Both the position numbers and the translations under genes were made by a program. Below, one piece after another: positions 2,589-49,439 of a stretch of DNA of 64,000 bases (positions are counted from its first letter, which is position 1; the number at the start of each line of letters is the position of its first letter). The notes beneath the pieces were generated by a model. That model had not been told where the DNA came from, did no database searches, and saw only the letters and a program-made list of their open reading frames with translations. Location of the stretch: assembly GCA_963663965.2 (NCBI GenBank), contig CAXXFK010000006.1:224001-288000 (forward strand), written 5' to 3'. This DNA is from Sedimentisphaerales bacterium (GTDB lineage: Bacteria > Planctomycetota > Phycisphaerae > Sedimentisphaerales > SM23-30).

Positions 2589-2635
2589 TGGATTTATAAT
2601 TTATGTCTCGACTGTTGGCTATTCTGTTACGGTCC

Positions 2636-2687
2636 TATACTTTTACTCCGCCCCGGCAGGCGCTGCACTTTTACTCCGGCGTTTACA
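2636..2687. mobile_element. Orphan IS21-type terminal fragment
   Basis: Two direct copies of ACTTTTACTCCG ending in ...GTTTACA (TG on the minus strand). Reiterated transposase sites are typical of IS21 ends. Abuts an IS66 tnpC tail. Confidence 0.55.
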
Positions 2688-2953
2688 GCGGCGCCCGGGT
2701 AGGCGATTTGTATATGGGCCTGATCCATACTTGCGAGTTGAACCAGGTGAATCCATTTGACTACCTGACCGAAGTACAGAAAAACCAGCCCACTATCGCC
2801 GCCGATCCGGAAAAATGGATGCCCTGGAACTACCAGGAAAATCTCAAGACAGACTCCCCGGCCTGATCTGCTCGCCCATCTCTCCTGCCTCCCCCAACTG
2901 CCGCCCAGGAATTTTTGGGATTTTCAGGTTTTTCACCCTTGCCGAAAGGACAC
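2688..2953 (+). mobile_element. IS66 3' fragment (tnpC C-terminus plus right end)
   Basis: GARVGDLYMGLIHTCELNQVNPFDYL...WMPWN is the IS66 TnpC C-terminal motif; ends in CTTGCCGAAAGGACAC at 2938-2953. Confidence 0.8.
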
Positions 2954-4130
2954 CATACAGGCACTCACCCGGGAAGTTCGCCGCCACCTCAACAAAACGC
3001 CGCCGTCCATGCGTCAGGCAGTTGCCCAGGATCGTCTTGAGTGATTCAGGGGCGTTACGGCTCAGAGCATCACACATCTGGATCGGATGCTGCCGGCCGG
3101 CGTGGCGCTGTTTCAGCAGTTCGGCCAAGTTCTCACCGGCATGGCTATGGCCGGTGAAGAACAACGCGATCCGGTGATCGTCCACAATGGACACAATGCC
3201 GGAGGTGAAGACGCCTTTACGCGGGTCTTGGGACGGGCCCTCGTGCTGCCGGCATAATTCCAGCACCTTCATGGTCGTATCATCATTGTGCAGCAGGCGG
3301 CCCTGGGCTGCCTGGTGGACCACTGCCTCAAACACCGGCTCAATCCGGTCAGCAACCTCTTCGACCATCTCCCATTGGGTTGCCGCCGGCAAAGGGATCC
3401 CCAGCGTGCCCTGGAGCCGCTGGAGGCGGTTGAACGGGACGCCGCTACCGTATTTCATCAAGGCGATCATACTGGCCGATTCCGCGTCGTATTTATCCGA
3501 TCCCATGCCGTCAGGGGGCGCGGCCGTGAAGAGTGCTCCGCATAAGTGGCATCGCAGCTTTTGCAATTCATACACCGTAGCACCCAAAGGGGCCTGGCCC
3601 TGGATGCGAATAATCCGGCCGGGAGTTGTCCCATAGACGGTTCCTTTTAGGCACTCCGGACAAGCATCGCCGGGTCTAAGGGAATCGTGCGGCACACGAA
3701 TTGTTTCCGCCCCCGTATAAGCATCCGTACCGTTCCGGCCATGTCCTTTGGTTTTAGGGGATGATTCGGGTGACAATTTGTCCTGTTTGTCATCCTGGCC
3801 GGGCTTGTTTTTCTGCTCGGTCTCGTCCAGAATCTTTTCCATGACCTTGCGGGTCGATTCCGTGGTGGCACCAAAGAGCATCTGTTTAAGCCGCTGGATG
3901 GAAACATGCTTTTTCTCCAGTTCCCGGGTCAGAAAAATCAGCGTTTCCATAGCCGCATGAAGCGTGTCGTATTCATCCTGGCTCAGAGCTGCCTTAGCAC
4001 GCTCCAGAATGGCCTCCAGTTCGCCCTGTTCCAGTTCCACGTATTCAGGACTGTGCGGCTTGCTGGAGATGGGTGTGCCGTGCCTGGACGTTTTGCCCAT
4101 CTGCCTTCGAAATCGTCTGAGATGGCCCAT
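2954..4130 (-). pseudogene. tnpC: IS66 transposase TnpC, truncated
   Basis: LKQMLFG, CPEC zinc motif, LHNDDT, CLTHGRRRF. Homology stops at ECLY where the inverted IS end begins. Confidence 0.85.
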
Positions 4131-4193
4131 GTGCTCGATCCTTTCTAAAAAGGAATAGAGACATTATCGGACAAAACCAAGATACCTCTTGAT

Positions 4194-4562
4194 TCATTTT
4201 AGCAACGCCCCCTCTAACCGCCGCCACGGCTCAACGCCCTGGGACGCCGGATTGCCCCCGGATAGCAGAACACTCAACTGGTGGGCTTCCAGGGCATGGG
4301 TAGCCGAGAAGTCGTTCTGAGGCCACCAGCCGAAGCGCCCCTTGGAAAGCCGCTTCTGGCAAAGCCAAAATCCTTGTCCATCGTAGACGATAATTTTTAT
4401 GGCAGTCGCCCGACGGTTACGAAAAACAAATAATATCCCTCGAAACGGATCCTGTCGCAACTGATCCCGGCAGATCCGGGCCAAGCCGTCGATCCCTTTA
4501 CGGAAATCAGCCGGCTCAACGGCTACCAGAATCCGCATATGAGGTGTCAACTGGATCATCAT
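4194..4562 (-). CDS. tnpB: IS66 accessory protein TnpB
   Basis: DFRKGIDGL, FVFRNRR, YDGQGFWLCQKRL motifs. Confidence 0.92.
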   Translation of the reverse strand: MMIQLTPHMRILVAVEPADFRKGIDGLARICRDQLRQDPFRGILFVFRNRRATAIKIIVYDGQGFWLCQKRLSKGRFGWWPQNDFSATHALEAHQLSVLLSGGNPASQGVEPWRRLEGALLK

Positions 4563-4964
4563 TCACCCCTTACAGAGCGTGTGGCTCAAGGCCGCCAGAT
4601 CGGGCAACTGAGGACCTTTCAGGTGGATACGGATCGTGGTCCCGTCTGATCGGTGGCACTCCAGGGCACACTCGGCTGCCGCCGTCAGTTCAGATGACAG
4701 CAGTTCGATGAACGTCGGACAGGTCTCAGCATCTGATGGGGATGCTGCCACCGTCGATTCCAACCGCTTCTTCAGACCGTTGTAATCCAACCGCAGGGTG
4801 CGGGCCGTCCGGTTCACGCCATAGGTCTGGGCCAACTTAACCGCCGCTGACCACAGCGAATCCGGCAATCGGCGGTAGCCCTTATGCTTCTTTCTGAACT
4901 TGCCAAAGCGTTCCCGACCGCGGACCAACCGGGCCGGTACATTCGATTTGGATCGGGTCTTCAT
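4563..4964 (-). CDS. IS66 TnpA-like HTH protein
   Basis: RLPDSLWSAAV...YNGLKKR; first gene of the IS66 cassette. Confidence 0.75.
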   Translation of the reverse strand: MKTRSKSNVPARLVRGRERFGKFRKKHKGYRRLPDSLWSAAVKLAQTYGVNRTARTLRLDYNGLKKRLESTVAASPSDAETCPTFIELLSSELTAAAECALECHRSDGTTIRIHLKGPQLPDLAALSHTLCKG

Positions 4965-5353
4965 ACATCGTCTCCATTATAGCATAGTCCTGACGACGTA
5001 TAAAATACCACCCGCGAAAATTTATGTCATGCACGCTTGCCGAAAATACACTGTGTTTCGAACAAATATTTAACTCTTTCGGCTAATCAAGCAACTTGAA
5101 TCGAACAGCTGGGGGGTTCGAAGTCGACCTCGCTAAAAACGGTAAAAAGCGCTTGCCAGCTAACCTTTTAGGGTTTTTGAATCGTCCGTAATTTATTTCT
5201 GAAATGGTCGTCCGATTCCGCTCAGGCAACCTGTTCCGTTGCACTCCACTTGAAAATCCCAGCAGAGTAGGGCCCAATGGGACCATTGGACGCGGTAAAG
5301 GTTAAGCGAAAAAGGTTTCAAGATAAGAATTGAAAGGAGGTCATGAAATAAAA

Positions 5354-5959
5354 ATGGAAACACAAAATCAAAATACCTTGGCTAATCCGGTCAGGATTAC
5401 CAAACTGGCGATGCAAGAAGAACTAGGCGAGCAATACAGCCGCTGCTGGTCGTTTGCCTTTAAATACGCCAGCGACGATCTGGAGTTCAATGAGCAGGTC
5501 GCCCGGCTGGGTCAGCGTTTTAATCTGCTGCGCAGTCAGGCCAGTTGGTTTATTAAAGGGGCGCATCGGATCCTGGTTAAGCAGGGGTCGATTATTAGCG
5601 ACGAACCGGTCAAGTTGGAAGTGCAAACAGAGCTGAGCGGTTTTTCCAGAAAACCAACTGCAAAACCGGCCTTTGACTATGTCTCGCAAACGGAGATGAT
5701 GGCGTTTTTAGCCGATCTGGAAGACCTTTTAAACCATCGGGACTATGCCGAGCACTGGGCTGAGCTGGAGCGTTTGCAGCAGATCGTGATGGAACAGCAA
5801 TGCGCCACGGAAAAAGAGGTCTTGAAGCTGTTTCATCTCCGGGCAGTTGTGGAAGGCGAGCTGGAAGCCCGGGAGCGTTTTTTTGACGCCTATCCGGTCA
5901 GTACTGACGCCTGGGAGAACGGCTATTTTGACAACGCCGGCAATGTCAATTACTGGTAA
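5354..5959 (+). CDS. Hypothetical protein
   Basis: ~200-aa ORF with AAAGGAGG nearby upstream and a terminator downstream. Confidence 0.7.
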   Translation: METQNQNTLANPVRITKLAMQEELGEQYSRCWSFAFKYASDDLEFNEQVARLGQRFNLLRSQASWFIKGAHRILVKQGSIISDEPVKLEVQTELSGFSRKPTAKPAFDYVSQTEMMAFLADLEDLLNHRDYAEHWAELERLQQIVMEQQCATEKEVLKLFHLRAVVEGELEARERFFDAYPVSTDAWENGYFDNAGNVNYW

Positions 5960-5964
5960 AGATC

Positions 5965-5989
5965 AAGGGCAGCGATGCCCTTTTTCTTT
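5965..5989 (+). terminator. Rho-independent terminator
   Basis: AAGGGCA-GCGA-TGCCCTT stem-loop plus T run right after the stop. Confidence 0.7.
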
Positions 5990-6232
5990 AATTTTTTATA
6001 GCCTTGGCCGGGCTGCCGGTGATGGCCCGGCGGCGCTCACTGGCGTTCGCGCGAAATGGCGAATGAGGCCGGGCCTTGGGCTGTTGTCCTCATGCACCTT
6101 GAAAAAGGGTTTATGGATCACAGTCTTTTTACTGTTTTATTTCTGATTGTTGGTCAAAGTGTTTGTTATTGATTTTTCCAGTTAACGTGAAAAATCAATT
6201 TCAAACAAAAATTAAATCATAGGAGGTAAACC

Positions 6233-6400
6233 ATGGCAGATGAAATCAAAGAATTGGCGTTCATGAAGACCAAGACCGGCAACGGTTACAAGGTCTGTGT
6301 GAATGACCGTTGGCTTTATACTTCAAGGAAGAATGTTGAAGAAGTCGTCAACGATGTCCAGACTACTTGTACTTTTTCGACAATCGAATCGGATAAGTAA
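6233..6400 (+). CDS. Small hypothetical protein, 55 aa (not in ORF track)
   Basis: AGGAGG RBS then MADEIKELAFMKTKTGNGYKVCVNDRWLYTSRK...DK-stop. Confidence 0.65.
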   Translation: MADEIKELAFMKTKTGNGYKVCVNDRWLYTSRKNVEEVVNDVQTTCTFSTIESDK

Positions 6401-6584
6401 GCAGGCTTGGTGTCACCGGGCGCATTGTGTTTGTTATTATTTTGAGATTAACGCGGCCGGTGGCAAAGACCGGTTCGATTCGTGGAACCGGCATATAAGA
6501 TGTAAGGAGGTATTGTGAGCATGACAAAAACGGTTGGTCAGAGAGTGTACCAACCGTTAACGGTAGTCAAGTTAAAAAGTCAAA

Positions 6585-6773
6585 ATGGAAATCAAAGGGT
6601 ATAAAATGGAGATCATCATAACTGCTGATGATTTCGAACAGTCAATGAAACGAAAACCGAAAGATCAGAGTGAATTTGATGAATGGGTATCTTATGTTGA
6701 AGAAGATTTGATTAGTGATGATGTTGCCTGGGAGATGTTGTTTGAGTCTGCGAGTTATACTATGCAGGATTAA
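6585..6773 (+). CDS. Small acidic hypothetical protein
   Basis: 62-aa ORF co-oriented with its neighbours. Confidence 0.5.
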   Translation: MEIKGYKMEIIITADDFEQSMKRKPKDQSEFDEWVSYVEEDLISDDVAWEMLFESASYTMQD

Positions 6774-6826
6774 GGTGAAACGATTTTTTTCAGTTCCGTG
6801 TGAAAAAAATCTCAAAGGAAGAAAAT

Positions 6827-7237
6827 ATGAGTGTTATCTATTTCAGCGATGCTGAATTGAAGCGTATCTACGATAAGCTTAACTGGCTGGCCGTAGATCG
6901 GGTTGATTTCAGCCCCCAGCTCGAAGAGCCAGCGCTGCGGCGCTGGCTGGTCCGGTTAGGCCTGAGCAATCGCCTGGCCTACCGGGTGACTTACCATGAT
7001 GGAGGCGCTGAATTGACCCTAGCCATACCTGACCTGGAGGTCGCGGCCGAGGGGGAGCTGGCGCTGAAACAGCTGATCGAACAGTTGGAATTACTGGATT
7101 ACAACTGTATCACCAATGGCGGTCAGTGTTTTGCGGATCAGCAGGATCTGGCGCTGTTAAATCGTCTGGTGGACAGTTTGCGGTGCCGTTATGTCCGGGA
7201 GCTGGAATGGGAATTGAACCGGGAGAAGCATAAGTAA
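6827..7237 (+). CDS. Hypothetical protein
   Basis: RBS-like AAGGAAG before ATG 6827; ~136 aa. Confidence 0.65.
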   Translation: MSVIYFSDAELKRIYDKLNWLAVDRVDFSPQLEEPALRRWLVRLGLSNRLAYRVTYHDGGAELTLAIPDLEVAAEGELALKQLIEQLELLDYNCITNGGQCFADQQDLALLNRLVDSLRCRYVRELEWELNREKHK

Positions 7238-7403
7238 CGAATGGACTGGTGCAACTTCGGACACGCTCCTCGAACGGGACGTTCCTGTTGGTATTTAATT
7301 TTCCCACCGCCTCAATTTTCCTTATCCTTTTAGATTTTTCCCCTGCGGGTCGCCGAGGTACCGCTCGGCTAAAAATGTAAAAGGCAGGAAAATCACCGGC
7401 TCT

Positions 7404-7664
7404 ATGGAAAAATTAAATGAACACCAACAGGAACTGGAGACCTTACTCGAGGAGCTGGCAGGCCTGGTCGATAACATGCGGTCGGTCCACTGGGCGATCA
7501 CCGACCTGATCACTGTATACAAGCAACCGACCGAGGAACAGGTGCGGCTATTGAATGCGTTTGGGATTCGTTATACCACCTTACTGACCCAGGCAAAGTC
7601 TCAGGCTATTATCGAGCGAAGATGTCGGGATCTCCTGACAGATATTGTTAGACAGGGGCATTAA
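7404..7664 (+). CDS. Hypothetical protein
   Basis: 86-aa ORF (PTEEQVRLL...TQAKSQAII) followed by a terminator. Confidence 0.6.
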   Translation: MEKLNEHQQELETLLEELAGLVDNMRSVHWAITDLITVYKQPTEEQVRLLNAFGIRYTTLLTQAKSQAIIERRCRDLLTDIVRQGH

Positions 7665-7682
7665 GCTCCTTTTTTCTTTTTT
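7654..7682 (+). terminator. Rho-independent terminator
   Basis: AGGGGC-ATTAA-GCTCCT plus long T tract. Confidence 0.55.
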
Positions 7683-8052
7683 AAGTTTTGCTATGGGACA
7701 GGTTCGGCCAGGCACGGCCAAACCCATAAAAGGCACTGAGCCCGTTATGAGGTCCGGGGCTCAGCTAACCTTTTAAGGCTTTGGCCTATTATGATCGGGG
7801 GGGAGTCACAGGTACTGATGACTCAGGTAGAGATCTCATTGGTGTGCCCAGAACCAATGAGATGTGAATCGTTGGCAAGCCATTTAGTTAGATGGATACC
7901 ATTATAAATGGAAGGTCTCGATGAGACCGAGTTTGTTTCAGCTCGTTGACGTAATTGGGCGCTGCAGGTCATAATCTATTACGATATCAGTGGGACCTGC
8001 GGTTTCTATATAGTCTCTTAAGATAAAATCTTGAGCAAGATGGCAAAGATAT

Positions 8053-8307
8053 CTCAACAGGGAGACGGATACCGCTGTGGCCCTGTTGAGTTCCGGCACT
8101 GCCGGATTAGGAATTCTTCGGAACCGGAATACTGGGGAACCTGACGGTTCCAGACAGGGCTCTGACGATCCCCAGAAATAAGGGCCTACGGGCCCAATAG
8201 GGGTTCTTCGAACCCGGATTACAGGGGGGCCTGGCGGCCCCAGATAGGGCTCTTCGAGCCCCATTAAGACGGGGGCCTGCGGGCCCCCTTTTATAGCCCC
8301 TCAGGGG
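8053..8307. repeat. Array of ~11 short GC-rich hairpins containing a 90-bp tandem duplication
   Basis: Units 8108-8197 and 8198-8288 each hold four stems, e.g. GGAACC-TGAC-GGTTCC versus GGGGCC-TGGC-GGCCCC. Confidence 0.85.
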
Positions 8308-8612
8308 TCAGGATCAGGAATTATGCTCCCGTAGGTCGCCGGAATTTTGATTTGTTTTGAAGTAGGTGTTGGTTGGCAGATCTGACGGGTGTCATTAAGC
8401 CGGAAAACACGCTTGAAAGTTGATGTTCCACTGGAATAGAAAATAAAGGCCTTGGAACCGGAACGGAAAATAGAGCTGTAACTCCTTATGTGAGCGAAGA
8501 TACGGGTGATTATCGCTGTTTTATTCCGTTCCGGGGGCGGAACGGAAAATTCGGACCGAAAAGTATAAATAGCAGGTTGAATTTATCGGTTTAATCGGAG
8601 GGGATTGGACGG

Positions 8613-9041
8613 ATGGATGATCGAAAAGCTACTCAGGAATATGATCGGTATAAGAGCAAGGGGGAAGCCCGGATCGCCGGCTTTTTAAAGGAGCGGCAGA
8701 TCCCTTTTCAATATGAATATCCCCTGGCCATCAAGGACCGGGACCAGGTCCGGATCTGGTATCCGGATTTTCGACTGCCGGATTATTCGTTGATTATCGA
8801 ATATTTTGGCATGAACCGGAACCCGACCTATAACGATCAAATTGCCCATAAAATTCGGACCTACCAGGAGGCGGGTGTGGCTGGTATCTATCTGTGGGAA
8901 TCATCTTTCAACGGTGACTGGCAGGCCGGTCTGCTGGGCCGAATCCGCCAGGTGCAGGAGAGTCGGTTGCACCGGATCAGTATTCTGGAGTCGAATCTGA
9001 AAGACCGCATTCCGGTTGGAATGATTCGCCACACTGGATGA
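8613..9041 (+). CDS. PD-(D/E)XK / Vsr-like endonuclease-domain protein
   Basis: KSKGEARIA, FQYE, YPDF, IIEYFG pattern. Confidence 0.7.
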   Translation: MDDRKATQEYDRYKSKGEARIAGFLKERQIPFQYEYPLAIKDRDQVRIWYPDFRLPDYSLIIEYFGMNRNPTYNDQIAHKIRTYQEAGVAGIYLWESSFNGDWQAGLLGRIRQVQESRLHRISILESNLKDRIPVGMIRHTG

Positions 9042-10995
9042 GAGTGATCCTGGGGGGGAGCAGCAGCCCCAGTTGGGCCAACCGTTTTTCAATGGCATGA
9101 TAGGCGGTTGGGGAGGTGGCGACGATAATGATCCGGGTGAAATGAGCCTGCAGATTTTGCCTGAGATTTTTGAGATAATCGGATTGCCCGGTTTCCACTT
9201 CCAGCGCGATGGTTTTCTGCTTTTGTTGGGCCACCAGATCCGTTCGTCCCACGGGTCGGTTCGCTTCCAGACGGACCTGATAACCCAGCTCTCGGAACCG
9301 TTGGGCATAGTACCGTTTCCAATAGGCATGGGCGATCGATTCCCGGATTTCCTGGGGGGGATCAAGGGCCAGAGCGGTTCGGGCCGACCGGGTAAGTCGC
9401 AGCAGGACAGTTCGGATCCGACCCGTCTGGATAGCCTGGCTCTCCAGCCAACCCAGGCGGAGCAATTGTTCTTTGAGTCGATTGCCAGAGCCGACCCCCA
9501 ACTTCAGCCGTCGATAGCGGGTCTTGACCCCATCATCCGGATAACGGAGAATATCCTCCAGTAGATGAAATGCTTCGGTACTGAGTGGGGTATCATAGCG
9601 TGGACTCCGTGGAACCGGAGCAAAATCGGCCGGCAGGGAGGTCTTTCGCCCGGAACCGGTTGGCTGGGACGGTTGATGTGAGCCCCGGGCCTGATGGAGG
9701 GCGAAATACCTGGCCAGCCTGGCATCGGTTACGGCGCCTTTTTGGTGTTGGAAATGAGGGAATCGGACCAGAAAAGGCTGCATCCAGCGATCCTGTAATT
9801 TGACGATGCCGGAACCGGTGGGCAGACGACTGAACCAGGATTTATCTTCCGCATCCAGCAGGCAGACCGCGGCGGCCTTATTGATATCGGCCGGGTCTTT
9901 CTGGTTCAGAAAGATGGTGGTATAGGTATTCCCCAGGGCCGCGGCAGAGAGCAGATGGGGATGCTGATCGATTACGACGATGCCGATCCCCAGCTCCCTG
10001 CACTGTCTTAGTAACATCTCGATAATGGTTTCACCGGAGGTCTGAGGATGCTTGTGCAGGATATGATGCGCCTCTTCGATAAAGATAACCAGCTTGAGTT
10101 CTTCCCGTTCGGGTTGACTGAGGCGGACATAATAAAGCCAGAGACAGAGCATCGGAATGAGAAACTTTTTGCTTTCCTGGGCCAGGGCATCCAGTTCTAC
10201 GACGGTGAAGCCATTGAGCAGTTGCCGAGTCAGTTGATCCTGACTGACTTGGTCATCGGTAGACAGGGCGGCGAATTCCAGACTCTCCAGGGCACGCAGG
10301 GCAGTCAGTTTCCAACCGGCTATGCGCCCCTTCTCCGGCAGGGCTTCCAGGTCCCTTATGAGCTCTTTCACGGTGGGACCAAGATGGCCACGGTCATACA
10401 GGGCAGCCAGTGTCTTTCGGATCAGACTGCGTGAGCCCTCTCCCAAGGTAAAGGCCTGACTCATAACATCCACTACCTGATTCACATAAACCGTGGGTTC
10501 GATTCCGGGAGGAACCATGAACGGATTAAAAGGAAAGGGGGCAATGGATCGTCCGGGGGTATATACTGCCAGACGCTGAGGAAAGTGGGGGATTAAATGA
10601 CGCACACTCCGCTTCCAGTCCAGGAACAGGACCGGAATCTTATGATCGATCAGCTGACCGAGTAAATGGAAGGAGACATTGGTCTTACCGGCGCCTGAAC
10701 GGCCCAGAATGGCCAGGTTCTGGGTCAGTTCCCGGCTGGAAATCCCTACCGGCCATTTCTCCACATCATATACTACCGTGCCTAATTGATAGGTCCCCCG
10801 GGCCTTAGCTGCCGGCGGAAGAGATAGCAGGATCTTCTGGGTAAAATCCCCTAACCGTCGATAAGCGGTATGAAGAATATGTTTGTCGAGCCGGGCCCGG
10901 GTTTCGGGGCTGGCTAGTTCCCGGGTCTGTTGCCAGATACGGGCCTGACCAGGGATCAGTGGCTGTAATATGCGAATGACTTTTTCGATTGACAT
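8977..10995 (-). CDS. HerA/FtsK-like (DUF87-type) ATPase with C-terminal HTH and restriction-endonuclease-like domain
   Basis: Walker A GRSGAGKT, LDWK, Walker B IFIEEAH, RELGIGIVVIDQHP; tail ESIAHAYWK...TDLVA...IALEVETG. Confidence 0.8.
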   Translation of the reverse strand: MSIEKVIRILQPLIPGQARIWQQTRELASPETRARLDKHILHTAYRRLGDFTQKILLSLPPAAKARGTYQLGTVVYDVEKWPVGISSRELTQNLAILGRSGAGKTNVSFHLLGQLIDHKIPVLFLDWKRSVRHLIPHFPQRLAVYTPGRSIAPFPFNPFMVPPGIEPTVYVNQVVDVMSQAFTLGEGSRSLIRKTLAALYDRGHLGPTVKELIRDLEALPEKGRIAGWKLTALRALESLEFAALSTDDQVSQDQLTRQLLNGFTVVELDALAQESKKFLIPMLCLWLYYVRLSQPEREELKLVIFIEEAHHILHKHPQTSGETIIEMLLRQCRELGIGIVVIDQHPHLLSAAALGNTYTTIFLNQKDPADINKAAAVCLLDAEDKSWFSRLPTGSGIVKLQDRWMQPFLVRFPHFQHQKGAVTDARLARYFALHQARGSHQPSQPTGSGRKTSLPADFAPVPRSPRYDTPLSTEAFHLLEDILRYPDDGVKTRYRRLKLGVGSGNRLKEQLLRLGWLESQAIQTGRIRTVLLRLTRSARTALALDPPQEIRESIAHAYWKRYYAQRFRELGYQVRLEANRPVGRTDLVAQQKQKTIALEVETGQSDYLKNLRQNLQAHFTRIIIVATSPTAYHAIEKRLAQLGLLLPPRITLIQCGESFQPECGLSDSTPEY

Positions 10996-11138: not shown

Positions 11139-11573
11139 TTATTCCGCCTCAAAGCCTGAAAAATTTAACTGTTCGTGTTCATTAATCAGGGCAAGTAATC
11201 GGTCTTCCAGGGTTTGTTTTTTGTCCTGCCATCGTTCGGTTAATTTACGGCGTTCCTTGTCAATTTCAAAGAGCTGGCGTTTGAGTTGATCTTGGCGGGG
11301 GTGATCGTCAATTGTGAGATACCAGGGCGTACGCTGGCGCATTTGCAGACTTTCGCTCACGGTCTGGCATTCCAGATGCAAGAGATGGCGCAGTTGATCT
11401 TCCCGTAATAGATTGAGTCGTTCCAGGTGTTCGCGGGTGAGCGCAATCTCCCGACGCAGGGTAGCGGGAATGGAAGGATCCCAGGCGATACTCCGCTCAG
11501 TAGCCAGTTCCCGGGCCTTGTCTTCCAGTGTTTTTCGGATTCTTTTCATCATATGATAGTGTTGGAATTGCAT
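11139..11573 (-). CDS. Hypothetical coiled-coil protein
   Basis: 144-aa helical ORF in operon-like spacing. Confidence 0.65.
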   Translation of the reverse strand: MQFQHYHMMKRIRKTLEDKARELATERSIAWDPSIPATLRREIALTREHLERLNLLREDQLRHLLHLECQTVSESLQMRQRTPWYLTIDDHPRQDQLKRQLFEIDKERRKLTERWQDKKQTLEDRLLALINEHEQLNFSGFEAE

Positions 11574-11597
11574 CTTAATAAGATTTCGCCTGATTGT

Positions 11598-12173
11598 CTA
11601 AGACAGCTGTTCGGCTTGCCTGAGGACCTCCCGGTATTTAATGCCCATCGCCGTCAGGTCATAGTGCCAGTGTTTTTTGCGGTGGATTCGGATCCGTTGC
11701 GCCAGACCACGGGCCACAAACAGCTTGACAATATCCCGAATGTTATTGGCGCTGATTTTAAGCCGGGATTGGCTTTGGCGCAGGATCCGTTTGAGTTCCG
11801 CCGGTTGCAATGGGTAAGTCAGGTATCGTAAGACAGCCGATCGATGCCTGAAACAGAGCCAGCCGTACAACGGCCAGTTCAGATCCGGCAGAGGGGAGAT
11901 TGGCGGCCAGGGTGGAACGGTTTTCGCCAAGATCCGATAGAGTCGTTGACCGGCAGCGGTGAGATAATAAACCCGGCTGGTCTGGGCGGACGGGTTCAGG
12001 CAATGAATCAGTTTTCTGCCGGCCAATTGGCTGAGGATATGACTGCATGTGGGCGCCGACAGTTGGGTGACCCGACTGATTTGGCGGGCTGTGCGCGGGT
12101 GGACCAGGGCGCGCAGAACCTGTCGGTAAGGGTATCGATCTTGCAGCCATTGGATGGTTGGTCGGGATGTCAT
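11598..12173 (-). CDS. Tandem winged-helix DNA-binding protein
   Basis: Two MarR-like wHTH repeats ending YYLTAAGQRL and YDLTAMGIKY. Confidence 0.7.
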   Translation of the reverse strand: MTSRPTIQWLQDRYPYRQVLRALVHPRTARQISRVTQLSAPTCSHILSQLAGRKLIHCLNPSAQTSRVYYLTAAGQRLYRILAKTVPPWPPISPLPDLNWPLYGWLCFRHRSAVLRYLTYPLQPAELKRILRQSQSRLKISANNIRDIVKLFVARGLAQRIRIHRKKHWHYDLTAMGIKYREVLRQAEQLS

Positions 12174-12341
12174 GGTATCGCTAGTAAAAGAGTACCACTT
12201 TAAAAGGGTACTATCACTTGAAAGTGATAACGATATCCCCCTTTATAAATCTTACGGTTGATGGTCCCATGCCATTGATGGCACACCGGGTATGATATGA
12301 ATCAGTTCAAAGTAATTTAAACCAGAAAATCTGGTTCAGTC

Positions 12342-12651: not shown

Positions 12652-13908
12652 TTAACGGTGTTCTTTACGCTGACGATGAGGGCGCTTCGAAGTCACTGCA
12701 GAATGGTCACGCAGAAAAGATTCCACTTTACGGGTCAGTTTCAGGCTGAGCTGGGTCAACTGTTGATTGGATTTTTCCAGATCGTCGATTTTCTCTTTAT
12801 AGTGATTGAAATCAGCCGCGGCGATCTGGCGCTGCTGGGACAGCGCAAAATTACAGAAACCACACACCTCGGCATCCCAGGGATTGCTCTTGCGGCAGTG
12901 TGGACAGGTCTGTGGTTTTTTTTGCAGTTCATAGGATTTGTCCTCAGCGGGGCGGGTCTGGCCGGCGTAATTCAGTTGCATCTCCTTGATATCGTCACCG
13001 CCGTAATGCTGGTATTCCCCGATAATGGTACTGGATTGGGTATGGCCGGCGAATTTCTTCAGAACCGCTTCAGAGACCTGGGGATTTTTTCCCATACGCG
13101 TCAGGGTGGCATGGCGCAGGACATAAGCGGAGAATTTGTTCTTCCATCCCAGTTTGTGTTTCAGGCGCTTGAACAATTTGGTGATCGTATCTTTGCGAAT
13201 CGGCATTGTCGGATCATCTTTGGCACAGAAGACATAATTGTCATCGTGCCGTTGACCCGGATAGCCCTTCATCCAATCCAATAGGTAAGGCTCGGAAAAG
13301 ATCACCCGAATGGGCCGATAGTCGACGGCGCCTGATTTTTTGGCAGTATAGATCCGGAAAAAGTAGCCGTGTGGATCTTTTTTCAGATTTTTCCATTGCA
13401 GCCGACGCAGTTCGATGGGGCGGGCGCCGGCATCCAGACCCTGATAGGCCAGAAAAAATTTATCGCGTGGATGAGGACAGAGTTTGATAGCGCGGTGTAA
13501 AACCTCTTCATCCGGCATCTCTTCCGGCAGCCGTAACCGGCCCCGGCCGCTGGGACGTTTCATCCCGCGTACCACAGCAGGAAACTCTTCATCATTACCA
13601 AACCAGTGTTTAAAGCCCTGCCGGATATGCAGATACTCATCCTGCTTGGTCTTGACGGCCAGCGGAGAGGCCAGAATAATATTCCAGGCCCGGGTAATAT
13701 CCTGTTTGGTGGCCCGGTCGAAATCCAGTTCCAGCAAATCGGCGAATTTGACCAGGGAATTAGAGAGCTTTTCCAGACGCTGATCACAGACCGAACCTTT
13801 TTTGTAGGTGAGCCATTCTTCAATCAGAACCCTGTTGCGGGGAGAAAGGCGATGCCATAGCTCGCGCAGGGATGTTCCATGGGATAGGCGGCCATAAGTG
13901 GATTTCAT
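12652..13908 (-). CDS. Tyrosine recombinase/integrase with C-terminal zinc ribbon and coiled coil
   Basis: GARPIE, YVLRH, AGH, EYQH catalytic set; CPHC...CGFC tail. Confidence 0.9.
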   Translation of the reverse strand: MKSTYGRLSHGTSLRELWHRLSPRNRVLIEEWLTYKKGSVCDQRLEKLSNSLVKFADLLELDFDRATKQDITRAWNIILASPLAVKTKQDEYLHIRQGFKHWFGNDEEFPAVVRGMKRPSGRGRLRLPEEMPDEEVLHRAIKLCPHPRDKFFLAYQGLDAGARPIELRRLQWKNLKKDPHGYFFRIYTAKKSGAVDYRPIRVIFSEPYLLDWMKGYPGQRHDDNYVFCAKDDPTMPIRKDTITKLFKRLKHKLGWKNKFSAYVLRHATLTRMGKNPQVSEAVLKKFAGHTQSSTIIGEYQHYGGDDIKEMQLNYAGQTRPAEDKSYELQKKPQTCPHCRKSNPWDAEVCGFCNFALSQQRQIAAADFNHYKEKIDDLEKSNQQLTQLSLKLTRKVESFLRDHSAVTSKRPHRQRKEHR

Positions 13909-14800
13909 AACGATTAGATGAATCGGAAATATTTAAATCTTTCGGACCGTCGGCGTGTTGACAGGACGACGTTGCCAATGTCTCAGCGGGAAATCCGCGA
14001 CGTTCCCCAGGATAGCTAAAAATAATTATCACTTGTCAATCTGAGCTGGAGGGTATTCTCAGGCACAACTGGAGAGTGCATAAGTACGGTTATGCATTTG
14101 TTGACTTGAAGTAAATTTGATATAATTCCAGGTTACTGGAAAGGCGCTTTCGGGATCTATCAGGTACTGGCAGGCCCTGGTCAGGCCGATAAAATGGGTA
14201 AAGATGGGTGGCGAAAGTGATATTTCAACGATAGCCGGCAATGTTGGGCCGGGGCGGATTTTGATTGCATGAAGGAGGTTAATATGTTAAAATATTTTAT
14301 ATCTGGGCCTGTTAAGGCAATGGTTCGGGCTCAGTGAGTTCTGGATTTGTATTTTAATTATATGACGCAGTAGTAAGGCTTCGGCCGAAGAGCGTGTTTT
14401 TAGCTGTTTGCTGTTACGGTCGCCGAGCCGGGGGCGCCATGCCTGTGATGCCACGAGAATGATGATGGCGACTGGAGCCTTTGGGAAGGAGGTTGATATA
14501 TTTATAATGTGGATACAGTTAAAAGATAAATATTGGGGCCCGGAATAAAGTGTGGTACGCAGCTGACAAAGCGATGTCAAATCGGAAAATGACGATGGCT
14601 GCAAGGAAAAATGTATGCGATGGTATTGTATACAGGCGGAGTTGCTGTTACGAAAAATATCGCTGCGCCAGGAGTTACCCGACCATCGATAGTATTCTGA
14701 ATCAGGCTTATAATGCATTAGAACTGGCATTTAGAGCAAAATTGCCGCAGGACAATAGTCAAATAATATATACAAAGAAACTCTATAAAAGGGGTAAATT

Positions 14801-15982: not shown

Positions 15983-16633
15983 TCAGTTGACGGTCATTTC
16001 ACAGGCCAGCAGATTAAGTTGCAGATCCCGATCCACAGGTATACCGCGTAAATAATGGGTATACTGACTCAGCATGAAACCGGCCGCGATATTAGCGCAG
16101 AAAATGGTTGATTTGGCAGTACACGGCCCGGCCTGAGCCTCGGAGGCGGCAAAAAAAGTCTGGGGATAATACGTACGGCTGACCGGATCACACGCAGTAA
16201 TCACCCGTAAGACCTCCGCGCTCATGCGGCCGTCACAGAAGAACAATACCTTATCCTGCACCATCGGCCAGATGCGGGCCCGGGTCTCGATCTTGTCCAC
16301 GCAGCAGAACACGGCCTGGCTGCAATTCACCGTCCGCCGAAACCGGTCGGGAACCGCATCGATTTGAATCTCCGGATTCATCCGCCGGCAGAAGGCAGCG
16401 GTTGCATCGATCTTGAGCCGGCCCAGATCATCTTGAAAATAACCCTGGGTGGCCAGATTACTGATCTCCACAGTATCAAAGTCGACTAACTGCAACTGTG
16501 TTACACCAATCGCTGTCAACTGGATCGCCACCTGCCGGCCGATCGCTCCCACACCGATCACCGTGACAGCATAGTCCCGCAACCGTTCAGCCGGGATAAT
16601 ATCCGCCTGACGGGAATACCGTTCATTATTCAT
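15983..16633 (-). CDS. ThiF/MoeB family adenylyltransferase (E1-like)
   Basis: RYSRQ, VIGVGAIG, DFDTVEISNL, CVD, DGRM, PC. Confidence 0.9.
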   Translation of the reverse strand: MNNERYSRQADIIPAERLRDYAVTVIGVGAIGRQVAIQLTAIGVTQLQLVDFDTVEISNLATQGYFQDDLGRLKIDATAAFCRRMNPEIQIDAVPDRFRRTVNCSQAVFCCVDKIETRARIWPMVQDKVLFFCDGRMSAEVLRVITACDPVSRTYYPQTFFAASEAQAGPCTAKSTIFCANIAAGFMLSQYTHYLRGIPVDRDLQLNLLACEMTVN

Positions 16634-17356
16634 AGCGCACCTCACTTCCGGATTCATACCAGTAATTTTCATATAACAGTTCATCCAGTAACGCCTGACG
16701 ATCACTATTCTCCAGCCGTTGAATCTGATTATAAATCTCCTGCGGACTCAGTGATTCACATTGGGAAGATTCCTCGGTATAACAACTCGATGACTGGCTG
16801 GAATTGTGTCTTCGCAAGGTCAGCTCGGGAATAACCTTCGCCTGATACTCCTGCTGCCACTGGTTATGATCGGTAGCAGGGAATTCCTGTTCATAATCAA
16901 CCACCATCGGCATTAATATCGCACCTCCCGGTCCGGCCTGAAACTGTAACCGGGCATAATGACTGCCATCCCGGGCCAGGATGCCCATCACTGACCAGTC
17001 GCACTGGCCAAAGACCCGTTTAAAGGTCTCTTCATCTACACTGCTTGGTTCCGGACAGTTGCCCGGATGGGTGTGCAGCCAGATTCTCGCGAACTGCTGG
17101 GGCTCCGCGGCCCAGTTCCACCTGGTCCTCGAAGAAGTCCGCGACTGCCATATCATCCAATGCAACGGTGATAGAGCTGACCTGCTGTTTGATCAGGGCG
17201 ATATCATGCACCAGCAGCAGATCCTCCCGCTCGGTAAGGCCAAAACCCGCTGACTTCATCATCGCTGAGATCGCGAAAATAACACAATTTCGACCAGGCA
17301 TAAGGGGTAAAGCGTAAGGGAATTTGATGGAATGAATTAGGATTGCGCGATTTCAT
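16626..17356 (-). CDS. JAB/MPN-domain metalloprotease (two apparent frameshifts)
   Basis: DEVSGF...WLHTHPGNCPEPSSVD JAMM motif; frames join near 17245 and 17110. Confidence 0.8.
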
Positions 17357-18327
17357 GGCTGACCTCCTTTCGTTGCTTGAGACATTCCTGACAAAGACCC
17401 TCGGAATCCACACAACTGCGACCAAAGGTGTCGCCGCAGTCAGGGCAGGTGACCGTGCAATTATGACAGGCAATTTCCTGACAGGCGGTGCATTCGGTAG
17501 AACAATCATGACAGACCGTGGTTTCGCAATGGGTGCAATAGGTGCTGCATTCCCGGCAATAGTCCCGTTCACAACACTCACAGGTATAAATATCATCCAG
17601 TCCTATCGACGTCCCGCAATCTTCACAACTGGCCCCATCCCAGTCATCCAGCGAAACAAAGGGACTCTGGGGATTGTAGGTGTGCAGCAGACTGTTGACG
17701 GTCAGGAAAAAATCGGCGATGCGCCCCTGTTTCAGGGCCTGACGTACCTGGACATAACCTTCCCCTTCACAGAGCTGGTCATGGGAGACATGGGGATGGG
17801 TGACATTGCAATCAGTGCCGGCCGGACAGGGATGGATGGCCACGCAGCGATAGGGAATATCCCGATCGGTAGCATGGATGGCGTTGATCCGCAAAGTGAT
17901 CTCAAAAGGGCCAAAATTAAACTCTTCCAGCTGGATGGAGTCGGTAATAACGGTTATCAGGGAATCCGCCGGTTGGAAGCGGACCTCCTCGAATTCCTGC
18001 GGCAATTGCAGCAGATCCAGGGTGATCTCGCGCAGGGTTGGGATGGTGTCATACTTCGGCATCTGACGGATCAGACTTTCCAGTTGATAACTCAGGACCG
18101 CCAGGGTCTGCCGGGTACGCAGCTGGATGCAAGTGGCCGCCAGTGCCCAGTGGTGTTGCTGCGCCTTTTGCCAGAGCCGGCAGTCCCCGTTCCAGGGTAT
18201 GATAGTGTTGCAGACAGGCAGCAATTTGCTGCTGCTGTTGCTGGTCCCGGGCATCCTGCCAGGTGAGTATCTGGTTACGATACTGACAGGCAATCCGCCA
18301 GAGTGTTTTGGGAGTTGGTTTAGACAT
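17337..18327 (-). CDS. Prokaryotic E2/UBC-like protein with Cys-rich zinc-finger tail (frameshift near 18185)
   Basis: HPHVSHDQLCEGEG resembles the UBC HPN...C site; about nine CxxC pairs at the C-terminus; AAGGAG RBS before ATG 18327. Confidence 0.7.
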
Positions 18328-18409
18328 AATAAATTCTCCTTGAAAATAAGAGGTATTTAGAAAAACAGGCCCTTCAACCACGCAGTCAAAGGCCTGAGCC
18401 ATCATACGA

Positions 18410-18637
18410 TTAATGCGCGCCTTCAATTTTCAGCGGGGTTATCGTTACCCGGTCATTCTCCTGCAGGACATAATCGCGCGGGACCGGTTGACGGTTGACT
18501 CGAATCAGGTAATCTTCGGGGGCATCGTTGGGCATCTGCCGATCGAAAAACTTCAGGATCGTCATGTTAGCTTGAACTTGAATGTAATCAGCAAAACCAG
18601 AGCCGTTATTGTTGATAAATAGAATCTGCATGGTCAT
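18410..18637 (-). CDS. Ubiquitin-like beta-grasp (MoaD/ThiS-like) protein
   Basis: 75 aa, YLIRVNRQPV..DYVLQENDRVTITPLKIEGAH; first gene of the cassette. Confidence 0.8.
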   Translation of the reverse strand: MTMQILFINNNGSGFADYIQVQANMTILKFFDRQMPNDAPEDYLIRVNRQPVPRDYVLQENDRVTITPLKIEGAH

Positions 18638-18773: not shown

Positions 18774-19584
18774 TCAACCGGTATCATAAAATGTATTGGC
18801 AGGTTCACGGCGAGCGAGGATCAGTTCCAAGACCTGACCGACAGTATGGAGAACCGCCAGACAGGCCCGTTCAATGGTCTTTTTTGATTTAGCGGCATAC
18901 CCTTTGACATACTCATAGGAAAATCCCAGGTTGACTTCCGGACAATACAGGCTGGCCAACGTTGCCGCAGTCAGTTCAGCAATGATCTCCTGACTGGGTA
19001 CCTGACCGCCTTGCAATTGGCCTTCGATTCGTTCGTGAGCGGCATGGGCCAGTTCGTGAAAAAAATACTTGGGCGCTATGAGTAGCCAGGACGATGCGGT
19101 TGGTATTACCCTGGTAGTAGCCGTAATAGCGGCTGGCAAAGGTTTGGTAACTGACCGACAATCCCAACCGTTCAGCAACTTCTATCAACGGTGGTGGTGT
19201 AACCGGTTCGTAAGGCAGGGGTTCGCCATCGGTATCTTCCACCCGAAAGACCGCAATGGCATGGAATCCCGTGATAATCACTTTTTCCACTTCACGGTCA
19301 TTCTCATCACGGTCTCGGATCACCCGGGTATTGGAACCCAGGATGCAAAATGCCTTGGCTCCTTTTTTGACTTTACGACCCGCGGTCTGCCATTGACGGA
19401 AGCCCCGGGCATCGGAGGTATCCGCTAAAAACTGCAATATCCGGTTGCCGATACTCCATTGGGCCGAAGGGATATCACACCGCGGCGGGATCGTTACCAC
19501 GGCCAATGCCTTGGGAACAGTACCTGACTGGAAAAGTTTGACGATCTGTCGCAGACAGGCTTTAGCTTTTTCGGAATCATTCAT
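18774..19584 (-). CDS. ArdC-like antirestriction protein (frameshift in A run near 19060)
   Basis: ARGFRQWQTAGRKVKKGAKA ssDNA-binding motif, VFRVEDTDG, HELAHAAH and EIIAE metallopeptidase-like motifs. Confidence 0.8.
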
Positions 19585-19603
19585 AGGTATCACCTCATTT
19601 CAT

Positions 19604-47503: not shown

Positions 47504-49439
47504 GTAGCGCCAGGTAACTGGCAAGGAGTAGCGGATGCAAGAGCCGTACAATGAAGGTTTAGCAAACCACATTGGCCCCGAGTCATGTGGGCATACCGGT
47601 AACGGTATGCTTGAAGCGTTGACAGGGGAAGATGCGGGCTGGGTATTGAGCCGCGTAAGTTTGTACATTATAGAACGGAGTGCCGACGCTGTCGAAAATG
47701 TCGGAAGGCAACACCGGATGTCTTATTATCGCGAGAGACATTCCGGACTCCGCGCGGTCGAAGACCCCAGGCACGCATGGACACTTCTTGCACAGGAACT
47801 GGGAGATCCCTTGTTTGGCCTCAGGACACATTATCCTGTGGTCCGCACAGAAAATCCAATTGGAGTACTGCTGTGATGAACGAACAGGGGAAGTCGGACA
47901 GGCCCATAGTACCTAAGAAGTTCTCGAACAAAGAGGCTGGTTGCCATGCCTTGGCGGAGAGGATAGAGGGAAGGGGCCTGACCAAGGGCAATTCGTCTCT
48001 ACTGCACAAGTGCCGGACACCGGGCCGGGAAAGCTTGCCAAACGCATTAGAACGAATACGACAGGCAGCCACCCGGGATAAACAGCTAAAGTTTACTTCC
48101 CTGTGGCATCATGTCTATCATGTCGACCACCTGAGAGAAGAATTCTATCGCATTAAGCGGCAGGCTTCCCCGGGTGTGGACGACCAGACATGGCAAGAGT
48201 ATGAGGCCGGGTTAGAGAACAATCTCAATAGCCTGGCAGAACGACTGAGAAAGGGGGCATATCGGGCAAAACCGGTAAGGCGGGTATTCATCCCCAAACC
48301 GGATGGACGCCAGCGTCCCATTGGTATTACTACCATTGAGGATAAAATCGTCCAGCGTAGCACGACTACGGTATTGAACGCTATTTATGAGGCTGACTTC
48401 AAAGGCTTCTCCTATGGCTTTCGTCCCGGTCGCAGTGCTCACAACGCCTTAGATGCTCTCTATGTCGGCATACTCAAGCGTAAGATAAACTGGGTACTCG
48501 ACGCTGACATCAGCGGCTTCTTTGATGCCATCGATCACGATTGGCTGATTAGATTCGTCGAGCACCGAATCGGAGACCCGCGAGTAGTACGGCATATCAA
48601 GAAATGGTTGAATGCTGGAGTCGTGGAAGAAGACAAACTTCTGCAGATCAAGGAAGGCACCCCGCAAGGTGGGAGCATATCGCCATTGCTGGCGAATATC
48701 TACCTTCATTATGTATTTGATCTGTGGGCTGACCAATGGCGAAAGCGTAACGCCAAAGGGCATATGATTATCGTTCGATATGCTGACGATATCGTTGTCG
48801 GATTCCAATATCAATCGGATGCCAATAGATTTCATACGGACCTGCAGAATCGATTTGGCAAGTTCAAGTTGAAGCTTCATCCGGCCAAAACCCGGCTCAT
48901 TCAGTTCGGCCGCTATGCGACAGAACGAAGGACTACTCAAGGTAAAGGCAAGCCTGAGACATTCGACTTTCTTGGCTTTACGCACATCTGTTCCAAGTCA
49001 AGTAAAGGTCGGTTTATGTTGCTCCGGTTGCCGATGAGAAAGCGGGTGCAGGCCAAGCTAAAGGAAATCAAGGAACAGCTCAAATACCGGCGCTATACCT
49101 CGATTCCGGAGATGGGCCAGTGGCTTCACTCTGTTATCAGCGGCTGGTACCGATACTACGCCGTTCCTAATACATCTCGCTATCTTGGCACCTTTCGCCG
49201 TAGGGTCGCCTGGCTTTGGTTCAGAGCGTTAAGAAGACGCAGTCAACGAAGCCGCATGACCTGGAGGCGAATGTACCAACTGATAGCAAGATGGCTTCCG
49301 CAGCCTAAAATTCTGCATCCGTACCCCCAGGCACGCTTACAAGCTGCTCGTTATGACCCGAGGTAGGAGCCGTATGCGGTAGTTCCGCTCGTACGGATCT
49401 GTGCGGGGGGCTGGGAGTAATCCCAGTCCCTACCGCGAC
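47504..49439 (+). mobile_element. Group II intron
   Basis: 5' GTAGCG; domain V GAGCCGTATGCGGTAGTTCCGCTCGTACGGATCT at 49367; domain VI ending ACCGCGAC; encodes RT. Confidence 0.9.
47876..49366 (+). CDS. ltrA: Group II intron reverse transcriptase/maturase, no endonuclease domain (start uncertain)
   Basis: PGVD, IPKPDGRQRPIGI, SYGFRPGR, GTPQGGSISPLLANIYL, RYADD, FDFLGF. Confidence 0.92.
   Translation: MNEQGKSDRPIVPKKFSNKEAGCHALAERIEGRGLTKGNSSLLHKCRTPGRESLPNALERIRQAATRDKQLKFTSLWHHVYHVDHLREEFYRIKRQASPGVDDQTWQEYEAGLENNLNSLAERLRKGAYRAKPVRRVFIPKPDGRQRPIGITTIEDKIVQRSTTTVLNAIYEADFKGFSYGFRPGRSAHNALDALYVGILKRKINWVLDADISGFFDAIDHDWLIRFVEHRIGDPRVVRHIKKWLNAGVVEEDKLLQIKEGTPQGGSISPLLANIYLHYVFDLWADQWRKRNAKGHMIIVRYADDIVVGFQYQSDANRFHTDLQNRFGKFKLKLHPAKTRLIQFGRYATERRTTQGKGKPETFDFLGFTHICSKSSKGRFMLLRLPMRKRVQAKLKEIKEQLKYRRYTSIPEMGQWLHSVISGWYRYYAVPNTSRYLGTFRRRVAWLWFRALRRRSQRSRMTWRRMYQLIARWLPQPKILHPYPQARLQAARYDPR

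Follow-up and report, generated by a model that had tools for sequence, protein, structure and literature searches.

An array of covarying, probable DNA mini-hairpins tied to a candidate origin site in an element family of Planctomycetota

The window analysed here is a stretch of 64,000 nucleotides (nt) from a Sedimentisphaerales bacterium (Planctomycetota; assembly GCA_963663965.2, contig CAXXFK010000006.1, positions 224,001–288,000), and our subject is an array of short GC-rich hairpins at 8053–8307 which an initial annotation had singled out as a possible undescribed element. The array lies in a module whose minus strand encodes a tyrosine integrase, a winged-helix protein, a protein of 144 amino acids (aa) and a HerA/VirD4-like ATPase, together with a convergent nuclease gene (142 aa) and, to the left, small genes on the plus strand. 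The features of the module are as follows.

5130–5179, minus strand: weak second copy of motif A (E 9e-4), upstream of the 209-aa gene
5330–7664, plus strand: small genes of unknown function (209, 145 and 86 aa), pointing towards the array and motif D
7317–7395, minus strand: motif U, a branched hairpin upstream of the 86-aa gene (folding z −3.42)
7713–7788, minus strand: motif A, a long conserved hairpin with a covarying stem (folding as DNA, z −7.68)
7914–8010, minus strand: left remnant of the array, two hairpins, split off by an insertion
8011–8110, plus strand: dispersed repeat of about 97 nt, resembling a miniature inverted-repeat transposable element, with TAG at both ends, within the array
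8108–8288, minus strand: core mini-hairpin array, four two-hairpin units of about 45 nt, eight hairpins, the first decayed
8297–8339, minus strand: small 4-bp hairpin and a decayed copy of a terminal hairpin
8426–8550, no strand assigned: motif D, in which TTCC-N3/4-GGAA is followed by AAAGcCCcTGGAAcnGGAAC repeats in direct orientation, an AT-rich tract (TAA...TTA) and one more GGAAC
8557–8571, plus strand: CGAAA..TATAAATA motif before the nuclease gene
8613–9041, plus strand: 142-aa nuclease of PD-(D/E)xK type, with a weak likeness to T7 endonuclease I and junction resolvases (E 0.05)
8977–10995, minus strand: 672-aa HerA/VirD4-like ATPase fusion, with a wHTH-like stretch (wHTH, winged helix-turn-helix) and a C-terminal nuclease-like domain
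11139–12173, minus strand: conserved 144-aa protein of unknown function and a 191-aa winged-helix protein
12652–13908, minus strand: tyrosine integrase with a C-terminal zinc ribbon (PF00589), of a kind mostly found in archaea

The roughly 11 hairpins originally described could all be located, and direct inspection of the window confirms them as real.

8053–8090, 10-bp arms
8092–8106, like the preceding one derived from the dispersed repeat
8110–8125, decayed, with only three Watson–Crick pairs
8136–8151
8157–8172, five of six pairs
8182–8195
8201–8215
8226–8241
8247–8261
8271–8288
8297–8307, 4 bp

No shuffled version out of 200 folds as well as the array, whichever strand is taken (plus, z −3.60; minus, z −4.79), and with seven perfect GC-rich hairpins in 260 nt it ranks second by density in the 7.2-Mb genome. 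The densest cluster (C19:126167) adjoins a Y1 transposase, and this locus, C19:125714–126450, has GTA and GTCA minus-strand loops as the array does. The 90-nt tandem duplication seen in the initial annotation is present (79% identity over 56 nt or 75.6% over 90 nt in two alignments), and its change from GGAACC/GGTTCC to GGGGCC/GGCCCC keeps the pairing, but the true basic unit is about 45 nt and comprises two hairpins and an AGATAG-like linker. The four units are 60–76% alike and run head to tail without spacers, so that the array is not a CRISPR, as had been said. The reported loops fared unevenly: cTACGg (8187) and cTGCGg (8278) are genuine tetraloops, whereas cTTCGg is confined to the decayed hairpin and the two good TTC hairpins have C-TTC-G triloops on 6 bp each. 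Read on the minus strand, the loops of the core are, in order, GAA, GTCA, GTCA, (C)GTA, GAA, GCCA, GAA and (C)GCA, all closed by C-G.

The first two of the 11 hairpins (8053–8106) are supplied by the dispersed repeat. When 18 other copies were made into a profile, it gave 32 genome matches, 29 of them near full length and most bounded on both sides by (T)TAG; no terminal inverted repeat was seen. In the window copy TAG is duplicated at 8011–8013 and 8108–8110 and a decayed array hairpin lies on its left, therefore the repeat was inserted into the array. Among 40 relatives it is nearly absent (one partial match), and the array of L080, for one, is uninterrupted. Other copies are intergenic, at C6:44153, C6:17318, as a tandem pair at C42:77992–78195 and at about 28 more sites, and no autonomous partner was found in five neighbourhoods inspected. 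Dispersal through the genome, taken in the initial annotation as the mark of an ordinary repeat, thus applies to 8053–8106 and not to the core at 8108–8288, and the limits first drawn are not supported, the conserved region as a whole running from about 7713 to 8570. On the far side of the insertion, a perfect hairpin at 7914–7928 has a counterpart after motif A at loci L100 and L106, and a decayed one near 7992–8006 has a minus-strand GCA loop. At the other end, 8325–8339 is a decayed copy (matched by eye) of the terminal hairpin of relatives, which there has a tandem G.A/A.G mismatch and a GAA-type loop on the minus strand. A Logan contig matches 6724–15500 with zero differences, an agreement which is not independent because the contig is probably from the source sample; no junction marking excision was found in the Logan contigs compared.

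Relatives were drawn from genomes by their ATPase loci (37 loci, with titles mostly of Planctomycetota), from metagenomes by their nuclease loci (the best 80 of 186), and from further genome searches (8/101 and 15/401). Arrays of the same design lie 230–500 nt before the nuclease gene in many loci, with a repeating unit made up of a short hairpin, an AGATAG-like linker and a hairpin of 6–7 bp whose loop is TTC or TGC; including the spacer, the unit measures about 45 nt. The array is kept by structure rather than sequence across the element family; with blastn, the core matched only the window itself in the first 50 loci. A covariance model was trained on 22 units from 11 loci, leaving the window out, and its top matches in the window and the genome were 8180–8218 (36.7 bits) and 8225–8263 (22.1 bits), the third-best being in a second element on contig C2. 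These are the only three credible matches in the genome, all within the two elements, and blastn of the core unit against the genome found only itself. Across 87 loci the model gave 62 matches (training units included), 61 of which have motif D 62–944 nt downstream on the same strand; the remaining one is cut by the locus end. In the fitted unit alignment 88.9% of cells are paired, with 120 two-sided changes, and none of 500 shuffles reached this, although the figure is not a probability because the aligned sequences are related. The array of hairpins is conserved and covarying. Unit number ranges from none to four or more through tandem duplication, therefore single units are probably additive or redundant. 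Model matches in genomes G003, G081 and G045 were taken as chance, being without D or element genes.

The limits of this distribution were also surveyed. ATPase loci without the nuclease, in genomes, had no array in their 6-kb flanks by strict scan or model; therefore either ATPases of this family extend beyond the range of the array or these loci have a more distant origin. There was no match to 7300–8620 by blastn in 72,556 PLSDB plasmids at E 0.01, and the plasmids held no DNA match to the element and only distant DUF87 ATPases. Viral contigs had no relative of the small nuclease.

Motif D is the most conserved feature of the region and a candidate nick or origin site. In the linkage count (120 nuclease loci, 10 of them too short; 81 after dereplication) D was present in 43 of 81, and within 450 nt to its left there was at least one GNA-type hairpin in 40 of these 43, at least two in 25 and at least three in 18, and two or more in none of the 38 loci without D, all counts being from related loci which are not independent. 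Neither D nor an array was found at those 38 of 81 nuclease loci. Among complete genomes, G023 and G031 are carriers of D. At locus L207 an array of seven hairpins and D occur, and the 1.5 kb past D yielded no nuclease gene. The second element in the same genome (C2:77600–81788) carries two copies of motif A, two GNA hairpins and D, again without a nuclease gene, and its ATPase gene points away from D. As arrays occur at these two loci without a nuclease after D, the array therefore belongs to D, and the small nuclease is not required for it. Of the partners first proposed, a link of the array to the element with the HerA-like ATPase is supported, and a need for the neighbouring nuclease is not.

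A step in strand composition coincides with D. Plus-strand G+T is 0.59–0.71 in the 550 nt to its left and 0.43–0.53 from D rightwards (42 loci); L188 and L201, probable chance sites, were counted in the set of 44 D regions and dropped from the 42-locus set. Taken by itself and with one to two mismatches allowed, the D pattern does not rise above background (17/26 and 28/401 genomes, with controls similar), and D matches were retained only with flanking element features. Ten exact matches in viral contigs were set aside as chance, having no array, motif A or element gene.

Motif A shares this polarity. Its 53 matches in 33 of 42 loci are all left of D and co-oriented, with multiple copies per element and a typical site before small genes and before the array. 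It has near-invariant T.T mismatches, to which relatives add tandem GA/GA on the minus strand, and is a candidate single-strand promoter. The weak copy at 5130–5179 folds no better than shuffles in this genome (z 0.48), and motif U resembles motif A in outline and is also found in L051 and L054. The small-gene cluster resembles a leading region and is variable in relatives, where it includes DUF2958, pRiA4b ORF3-like and unknown genes. Among 14 families of open reading frames kept left of D, 10 point only towards D and one mostly so; the three that point away are probably shadow frames.

The strand and molecule in which the hairpins act were examined with a loop-register test in the 44 D regions, anchored on loop sequence alone and not selected on pairing. 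In the triloop register of CTTCG the next three pairs are Watson–Crick in 32 of 57 cases (shuffle mean 2.2, maximum 8), and the tetraloop register of CTTCGG is paired in 1 of 23. Minus-strand C-GNYA-G is paired in 20/31 and RNA-type C-GNRA-G in 1/11. Distinct triloop hairpins have minus-strand C-GNA-G in 30 of 44, and tetraloops have minus-strand C-GNNA-G in 12 of 40, with a further 11 of C-CGNA-G. Internal mismatches include tandem GA/GA on the minus strand (n = 6) and no plus-strand G.T among nine single mismatches, and the U.C and C.U mismatches of the plus strand read G.A on the minus strand. The array thus follows the loop rule for DNA mini-hairpins (GNA or GNNA, C-G closed, on one strand). 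According to PMC13037366, GNA alone of 64 triloops gives DNA mini-hairpins, closure by a C-G pair is required and the RNA versions are much weaker; the DNA forms are nuclease-resistant, bind single-strand DNA-binding protein (SSB) poorly and are found at G4, ssiA and N4 sites. The loop registers therefore favour minus-strand DNA mini-hairpins over an RNA scaffold, and we are fairly confident that the array acts as minus-strand DNA. Of the two roles first suggested, an RNA scaffold or a signal in single-stranded DNA (ssDNA), it is the second which has gained. On the minus strand CTA, a triplet of the kind at which primases start, comes directly after the hairpin in 19 of 52 with a triloop and in none of 12 with a tetraloop, which is suggestive only.

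The ATPase fusion is the candidate enzyme for this site. In an alignment of 63 sequences its C-terminus (the domain spans residues 465–672 approximately) has invariant H556, E577, D586, E599 and E601, and D586, E599 and E601 make up D-x12-E-x-E, in keeping with a PD-(D/E)xK-type active site, for which the spacing rule is D-x6-17-E-x-E. Profile matches were DUF87 in 63/63, P-loop_TraG in 62/63 (below cut-off) and TrwB_AAD_bind in 8/63, and the protein can be put forward as a candidate pump-plus-relaxase. The small nuclease and the C-terminus of the ATPase do not align to each other. The separate 191-aa protein is a candidate origin binder or regulator; just its winged helix is matched by PF13814.

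We propose, giving it an even chance, that the array is a priming and protection signal in ssDNA at the leading end of a nicked and displaced minus strand, akin to an origin of transfer (oriT) with a single-strand origin (sso). The fusion would nick the minus strand at D, an oriT which would serve also as double-strand origin, and the array would be exposed first, followed by motif A, the small genes and, last, the fusion gene. The exposed array would resist exonucleases and SSB, shield the end and prime second-strand synthesis in the manner of sso or single-strand initiation (ssi) sites. The fusion protein may be a MOBC-like relaxase with its own coupling ATPase, and the small genes a leading region with the minus strand as template and motif A as a promoter like Frpo or ssi. 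Precedents come from published reports: MOBC relaxases are PD-(D/E)xK enzymes, and TraX binds direct repeats 70–120 bp from nic, no covalent intermediate having been seen (PMC12857230, PMC6736028); integrative and mobilizable elements (IMEs) with MobC have their own VirD4 (PMC5357655, PMC5704250); the relaxase gene enters last in the leading-region layout (PMC11541004); and the sso of ICEBs1 is placed downstream of oriT (PMC4595007). GGAAC direct repeats in D invite comparison with the MOBC oriT repeats, and the orientation of the array relative to D is fixed (61/62 model matches), as an sso or ssi site requires.

A number of observations weigh against this proposal. Fewer than two hairpins are carried by 18 of the 43 D loci, where the array is dispensable or replaceable, and L054 keeps the full set of element genes without D and array, with a truncated nuclease gene. 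The deletion there (L054:8890–9420) takes the array, D and the start of the nuclease gene; the locus is probably an immobile remnant. No att repeat was found for the element of the window, no known anti-defence family was found among its small genes, and MOBC elements are described, in PMC11541004, without anti-defence enrichment in their leading regions. The best solved relatives of the ATPase (PDB) are HerA, not coupling proteins. PF13814 is matched by none of the 63 fusion sequences and a six-frame PF13814 search misses the fusion; tblastn of its C-terminal domain against plasmids gave only CoiA-like matches at E 3 or worse. An Atlas relaxase lead (0.86, the family being on 11% of members) is a lead only. 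A search of five host genomes, of which two are complete or almost complete, gave no VirB4 above cut-off and matched mainly the element ATPases themselves. As to strand, plus-strand C-GNA-G, the mirror control, is paired in 5/45, CTGCGG pairs in the tetraloop register in 8/20, and the TACG and TGCG loops of the window are UNCG-type tetraloops. By nearest-neighbour energies the minus strand as DNA is more stable in 4 of 15 arrays and the plus strand as RNA in 13 of 15; these energies are blind to the GNA effect because the DNA parameters make no difference in energy between a GAA loop and a TTC loop.

A vegetative origin with ssi-like sites explains most of the facts above as well; the same minus-strand signal would then serve replication of the element after excision, and conjugative transfer would play no part. 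The GGAAC repeats would be bound by the wHTH protein (by Cdc6/Orc1 in one subfamily), the AT-rich tract would melt, the HerA-like ATPase would unwind, and the hairpins would be ssi-type priming sites as in the vegetative origin of RSF1010. D does look like iterons with an AT-rich tract, a Cdc6/Orc1-like AAA+ gene is in the module of that subfamily (L055, L127, L129, L154), ssiA has a GAA mini-hairpin (PMC13037366), and the negative VirB4 search in five hosts and the HerA likeness of the ATPase speak for it as well. This reading is doubtful, though by no means negligible: only one strand is marked, with hairpins, motif A and most small genes on one side in one polarity, as a displaced strand would have them, the module showed no recognisable gene for a primase or replicative helicase, and the Cdc6 subfamily mostly has few hairpins. 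The exact role is most likely one of these two, a transfer origin with an sso or a vegetative origin. A further reading makes the array a plus-strand non-coding RNA, either an attenuator or a scaffold for protein binding, with its promoter in motif A or close by, for which an argument like that made for STAXI can be built on the cUACGg and cUGCGg tetraloops, the CTGCGG pairing and the RNA energies noted above. Motif A could be an ordinary promoter, a sigma-70-like site lies at 7946–7975 and the hairpin at 8271–8288 is terminator-like. We think the RNA improbable, as the commonest loop is UUC in triloop register and cUUCGg almost never forms, G.U is missing from the internal single mismatches, the sigma-70-like promoter is at chance level (one found, 1.2 expected), a T-tract follows the last hairpin in just 11 of 36, on a T-rich strand, and the array has withstood both an insert of 97 nt and wide variation in unit number. 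The array also has no match to an Rfam family, STAXI and Gut-1 included, in the window at gathering score, in line with the initial annotation, which recognised no family; at E 1, ten array loci gave only three chance matches to miRNA models, outside the array cores.

Readings that give the array no origin role fare worse still. Self-propagating or neutral palindromes, like repetitive extragenic palindromes (REPs) and bacterial interspersed mosaic elements (BIMEs), or cruciform substrates of the small nuclease, are very improbable and largely refuted already. Similar short GNA hairpins do flank the Y1 transposase on C19, the units expand in tandem, and the small nuclease weakly resembles T7 endonuclease I; against this, the core is not dispersed (the three best genome matches being the window's two and the one on C2), C6 has no Y1 transposase, no GTAG precedes the hairpins, position and polarity relative to D are fixed, and arrays occur without the nuclease. 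An anti-phage system of HerA and nuclease with the array as decoy or trigger seems more remote again. It draws on weak PADLOC matches, to HerA/DndH/Mad8 for the ATPase and to PDC-S68/S69 domains for the nuclease, and on the triggering of Lamassu/DdmABC by hairpins (PMC12282955), but the PADLOC matches are partial and far from whole systems, the ATPase and nuclease genes are convergent rather than in an operon, and the constant neighbours are the integrase, the wHTH protein and plasmid-type small genes.

The genes around the proposed ssDNA signal place it in a mobile module. Gene order is shared by L003/L054, L052, L078, L080, L081, L087, L090 and G406. In genome G742 the module has its integrase next to a tRNA gene, and in G406 and G031 it is part of a tRNA-Phe island that has a second integrase; no tRNA was found in the window or on contig C6. 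The tRNA gene in G742 is an atypical tRNA-Val right before the element integrase (L240:14513–14584, G742:C27), whose frame is split there. The nearest Atlas clusters of the window's integrase are 67–100% archaeal, a share which is no proof of transfer. A CGAAA..TTTATAAA-type motif, which we take to resemble archaeal BRE/TATA promoters, recurs on the minus strand at about 12241–12257 and about 13930–13946, before the wHTH and integrase genes. It is conserved in relatives and rare in the host: CG(A/T)AA-n1-3-TTTA(T/A)A(A/T)A has 24 genome matches, of which three precede a long open reading frame, two of these being element genes. The Cdc6/Orc1-like AAA+ proteins with a C-terminal winged helix (L055:5810–6895, L129:8043–9137, L127 and L154) are on bacterial-looking contigs. 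A bolder and rather unlikely extension of the transfer reading is that of an undescribed element family of archaeal descent in Planctomycetota, in which one fusion protein nicks and pumps, with no covalent relaxase link, and a GNA array, tunable and proof against nucleases, caps and primes the naked leading end. The archaeal-type integrase, the Cdc6/Orc1 subfamily and the BRE/TATA-like motif would then be traces of archaeal origin, and it would be answered how the strands of non-covalent (MOBC-like) relaxases get established.

Beyond the module, the window carries a ubiquitin-like cassette on the minus strand (15983–18637; ThiF/E1, JAB, probable E2 and ThiS-like genes), after which come an ArdC-like gene (18976–19593) and another gene of plasmid type; in L052, L055, G406 and G031 the module has similar cassettes next to it. 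An IS66-like element is found at about 2600–4960. The remainder, 21604–64000, is a hotspot of defence genes and insertion sequences, with a split sigma-54 regulator, type I restriction-modification genes accompanied by a Fic protein, one large DEAH helicase, IS3 (two copies), IS256, IS21, IS630 and two more tyrosine recombinases, and a group II intron with reverse transcriptase is at 47540–49366. Elsewhere the genome holds a large second family, in many copies, of long structured intergenic repeats of several hundred bases (e.g. C36:7685–9200, C42:49600–50500, C10:304352).

No description of the element family or the array was found in the literature, where the supplements of PMC2864571 and PMC11541004 could still hold a related motif. 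Among published systems, the closest in loop type are the GNA/GNNA mini-hairpin sites of the G4 complementary-strand origin, RSF1010 ssiA and the promoters of the N4 virion RNA polymerase (PMC13037366), which like the array have C-G closed loops on one strand near a likely origin. The known sites have one to three hairpins and the array up to eight or more, and it differs further in its regular unit of about 45 nt, conserved linker, variable copy number and the absence of a recognised cognate primase gene. Like sso1 of ICEBs1 (PMC4595007), the array would be a multi-hairpin ssDNA site of fixed orientation in an integrative element, on the origin's first-exposed side in the transfer reading; it had no PLSDB sequence match. 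ICEBs1 encodes a full type IV secretion system and a MOBT relaxase, unlike the element in the window. Blastn against the 72,556 plasmids showed no sequence likeness of the array to described sso, ssi or Frpo sites.

For the enzyme, the comparators are IMEs with MobC (PF13814), pAD1 TraX and CloDF13 MobC (PMC5357655, PMC5704250, PMC12857230, PMC6736028). The MobC IMEs and the window element both combine an integrase, an ATPase and a PD-(D/E)xK nuclease with D..E-x-E, and both have direct repeats at the candidate origin and no mating-pore genes. In the window element, however, ATPase and nuclease are in one protein, the ATPase is nearer to the HerA/CedB type, the fusion has no PF13814 match, and the tyrosine integrase is archaeal-type where the MobC IMEs have a serine integrase. 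The leading regions with Frpo or ssi (PMC11541004, PMC12282955) have variable co-oriented small genes and a repeated long template-strand hairpin, as here, but motif A has no clear TTGACA/TATAAT boxes and the genes in the window are of unknown function. STAXI (PMC2864571) is likewise a tandem structured repeat near integrase, antirestriction and DNA-handling genes and raises the same question of RNA or ssDNA; it is a pseudoknot with UUCG tetraloops, judged RNA-like, whereas the loops of the window are in triloop register. REPs and BIMEs with TnpA-REP (PMC8266576) are short clustered palindromes too, but GTAG defines REPs, and the core array has no GTAG, no dispersal and no Y1 transposase nearby, only the 97-nt insert being dispersed.

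In our best reading the array would work like an sso or ssi site made of DNA mini-hairpins and, by the tests run, falls outside the described sso, REP, CRISPR and Rfam families. New are the element family, the regularity of the two-hairpin unit and the strictness with which it is tied to a defined repeat site. For most integrative elements neither the origin of transfer nor the single-strand origin is known, with almost nothing for Planctomycetota, and the region offers a complete, alignable set of cis features in dozens of loci (promoter-like hairpin, array, repeat site and strand-bias step). The array also illustrates how a signal in ssDNA may be mistaken for a UUCG RNA and that the two can be separated by loop register, and the predicted strand and candidate nicking enzyme make each step testable with oligonucleotides and one protein.

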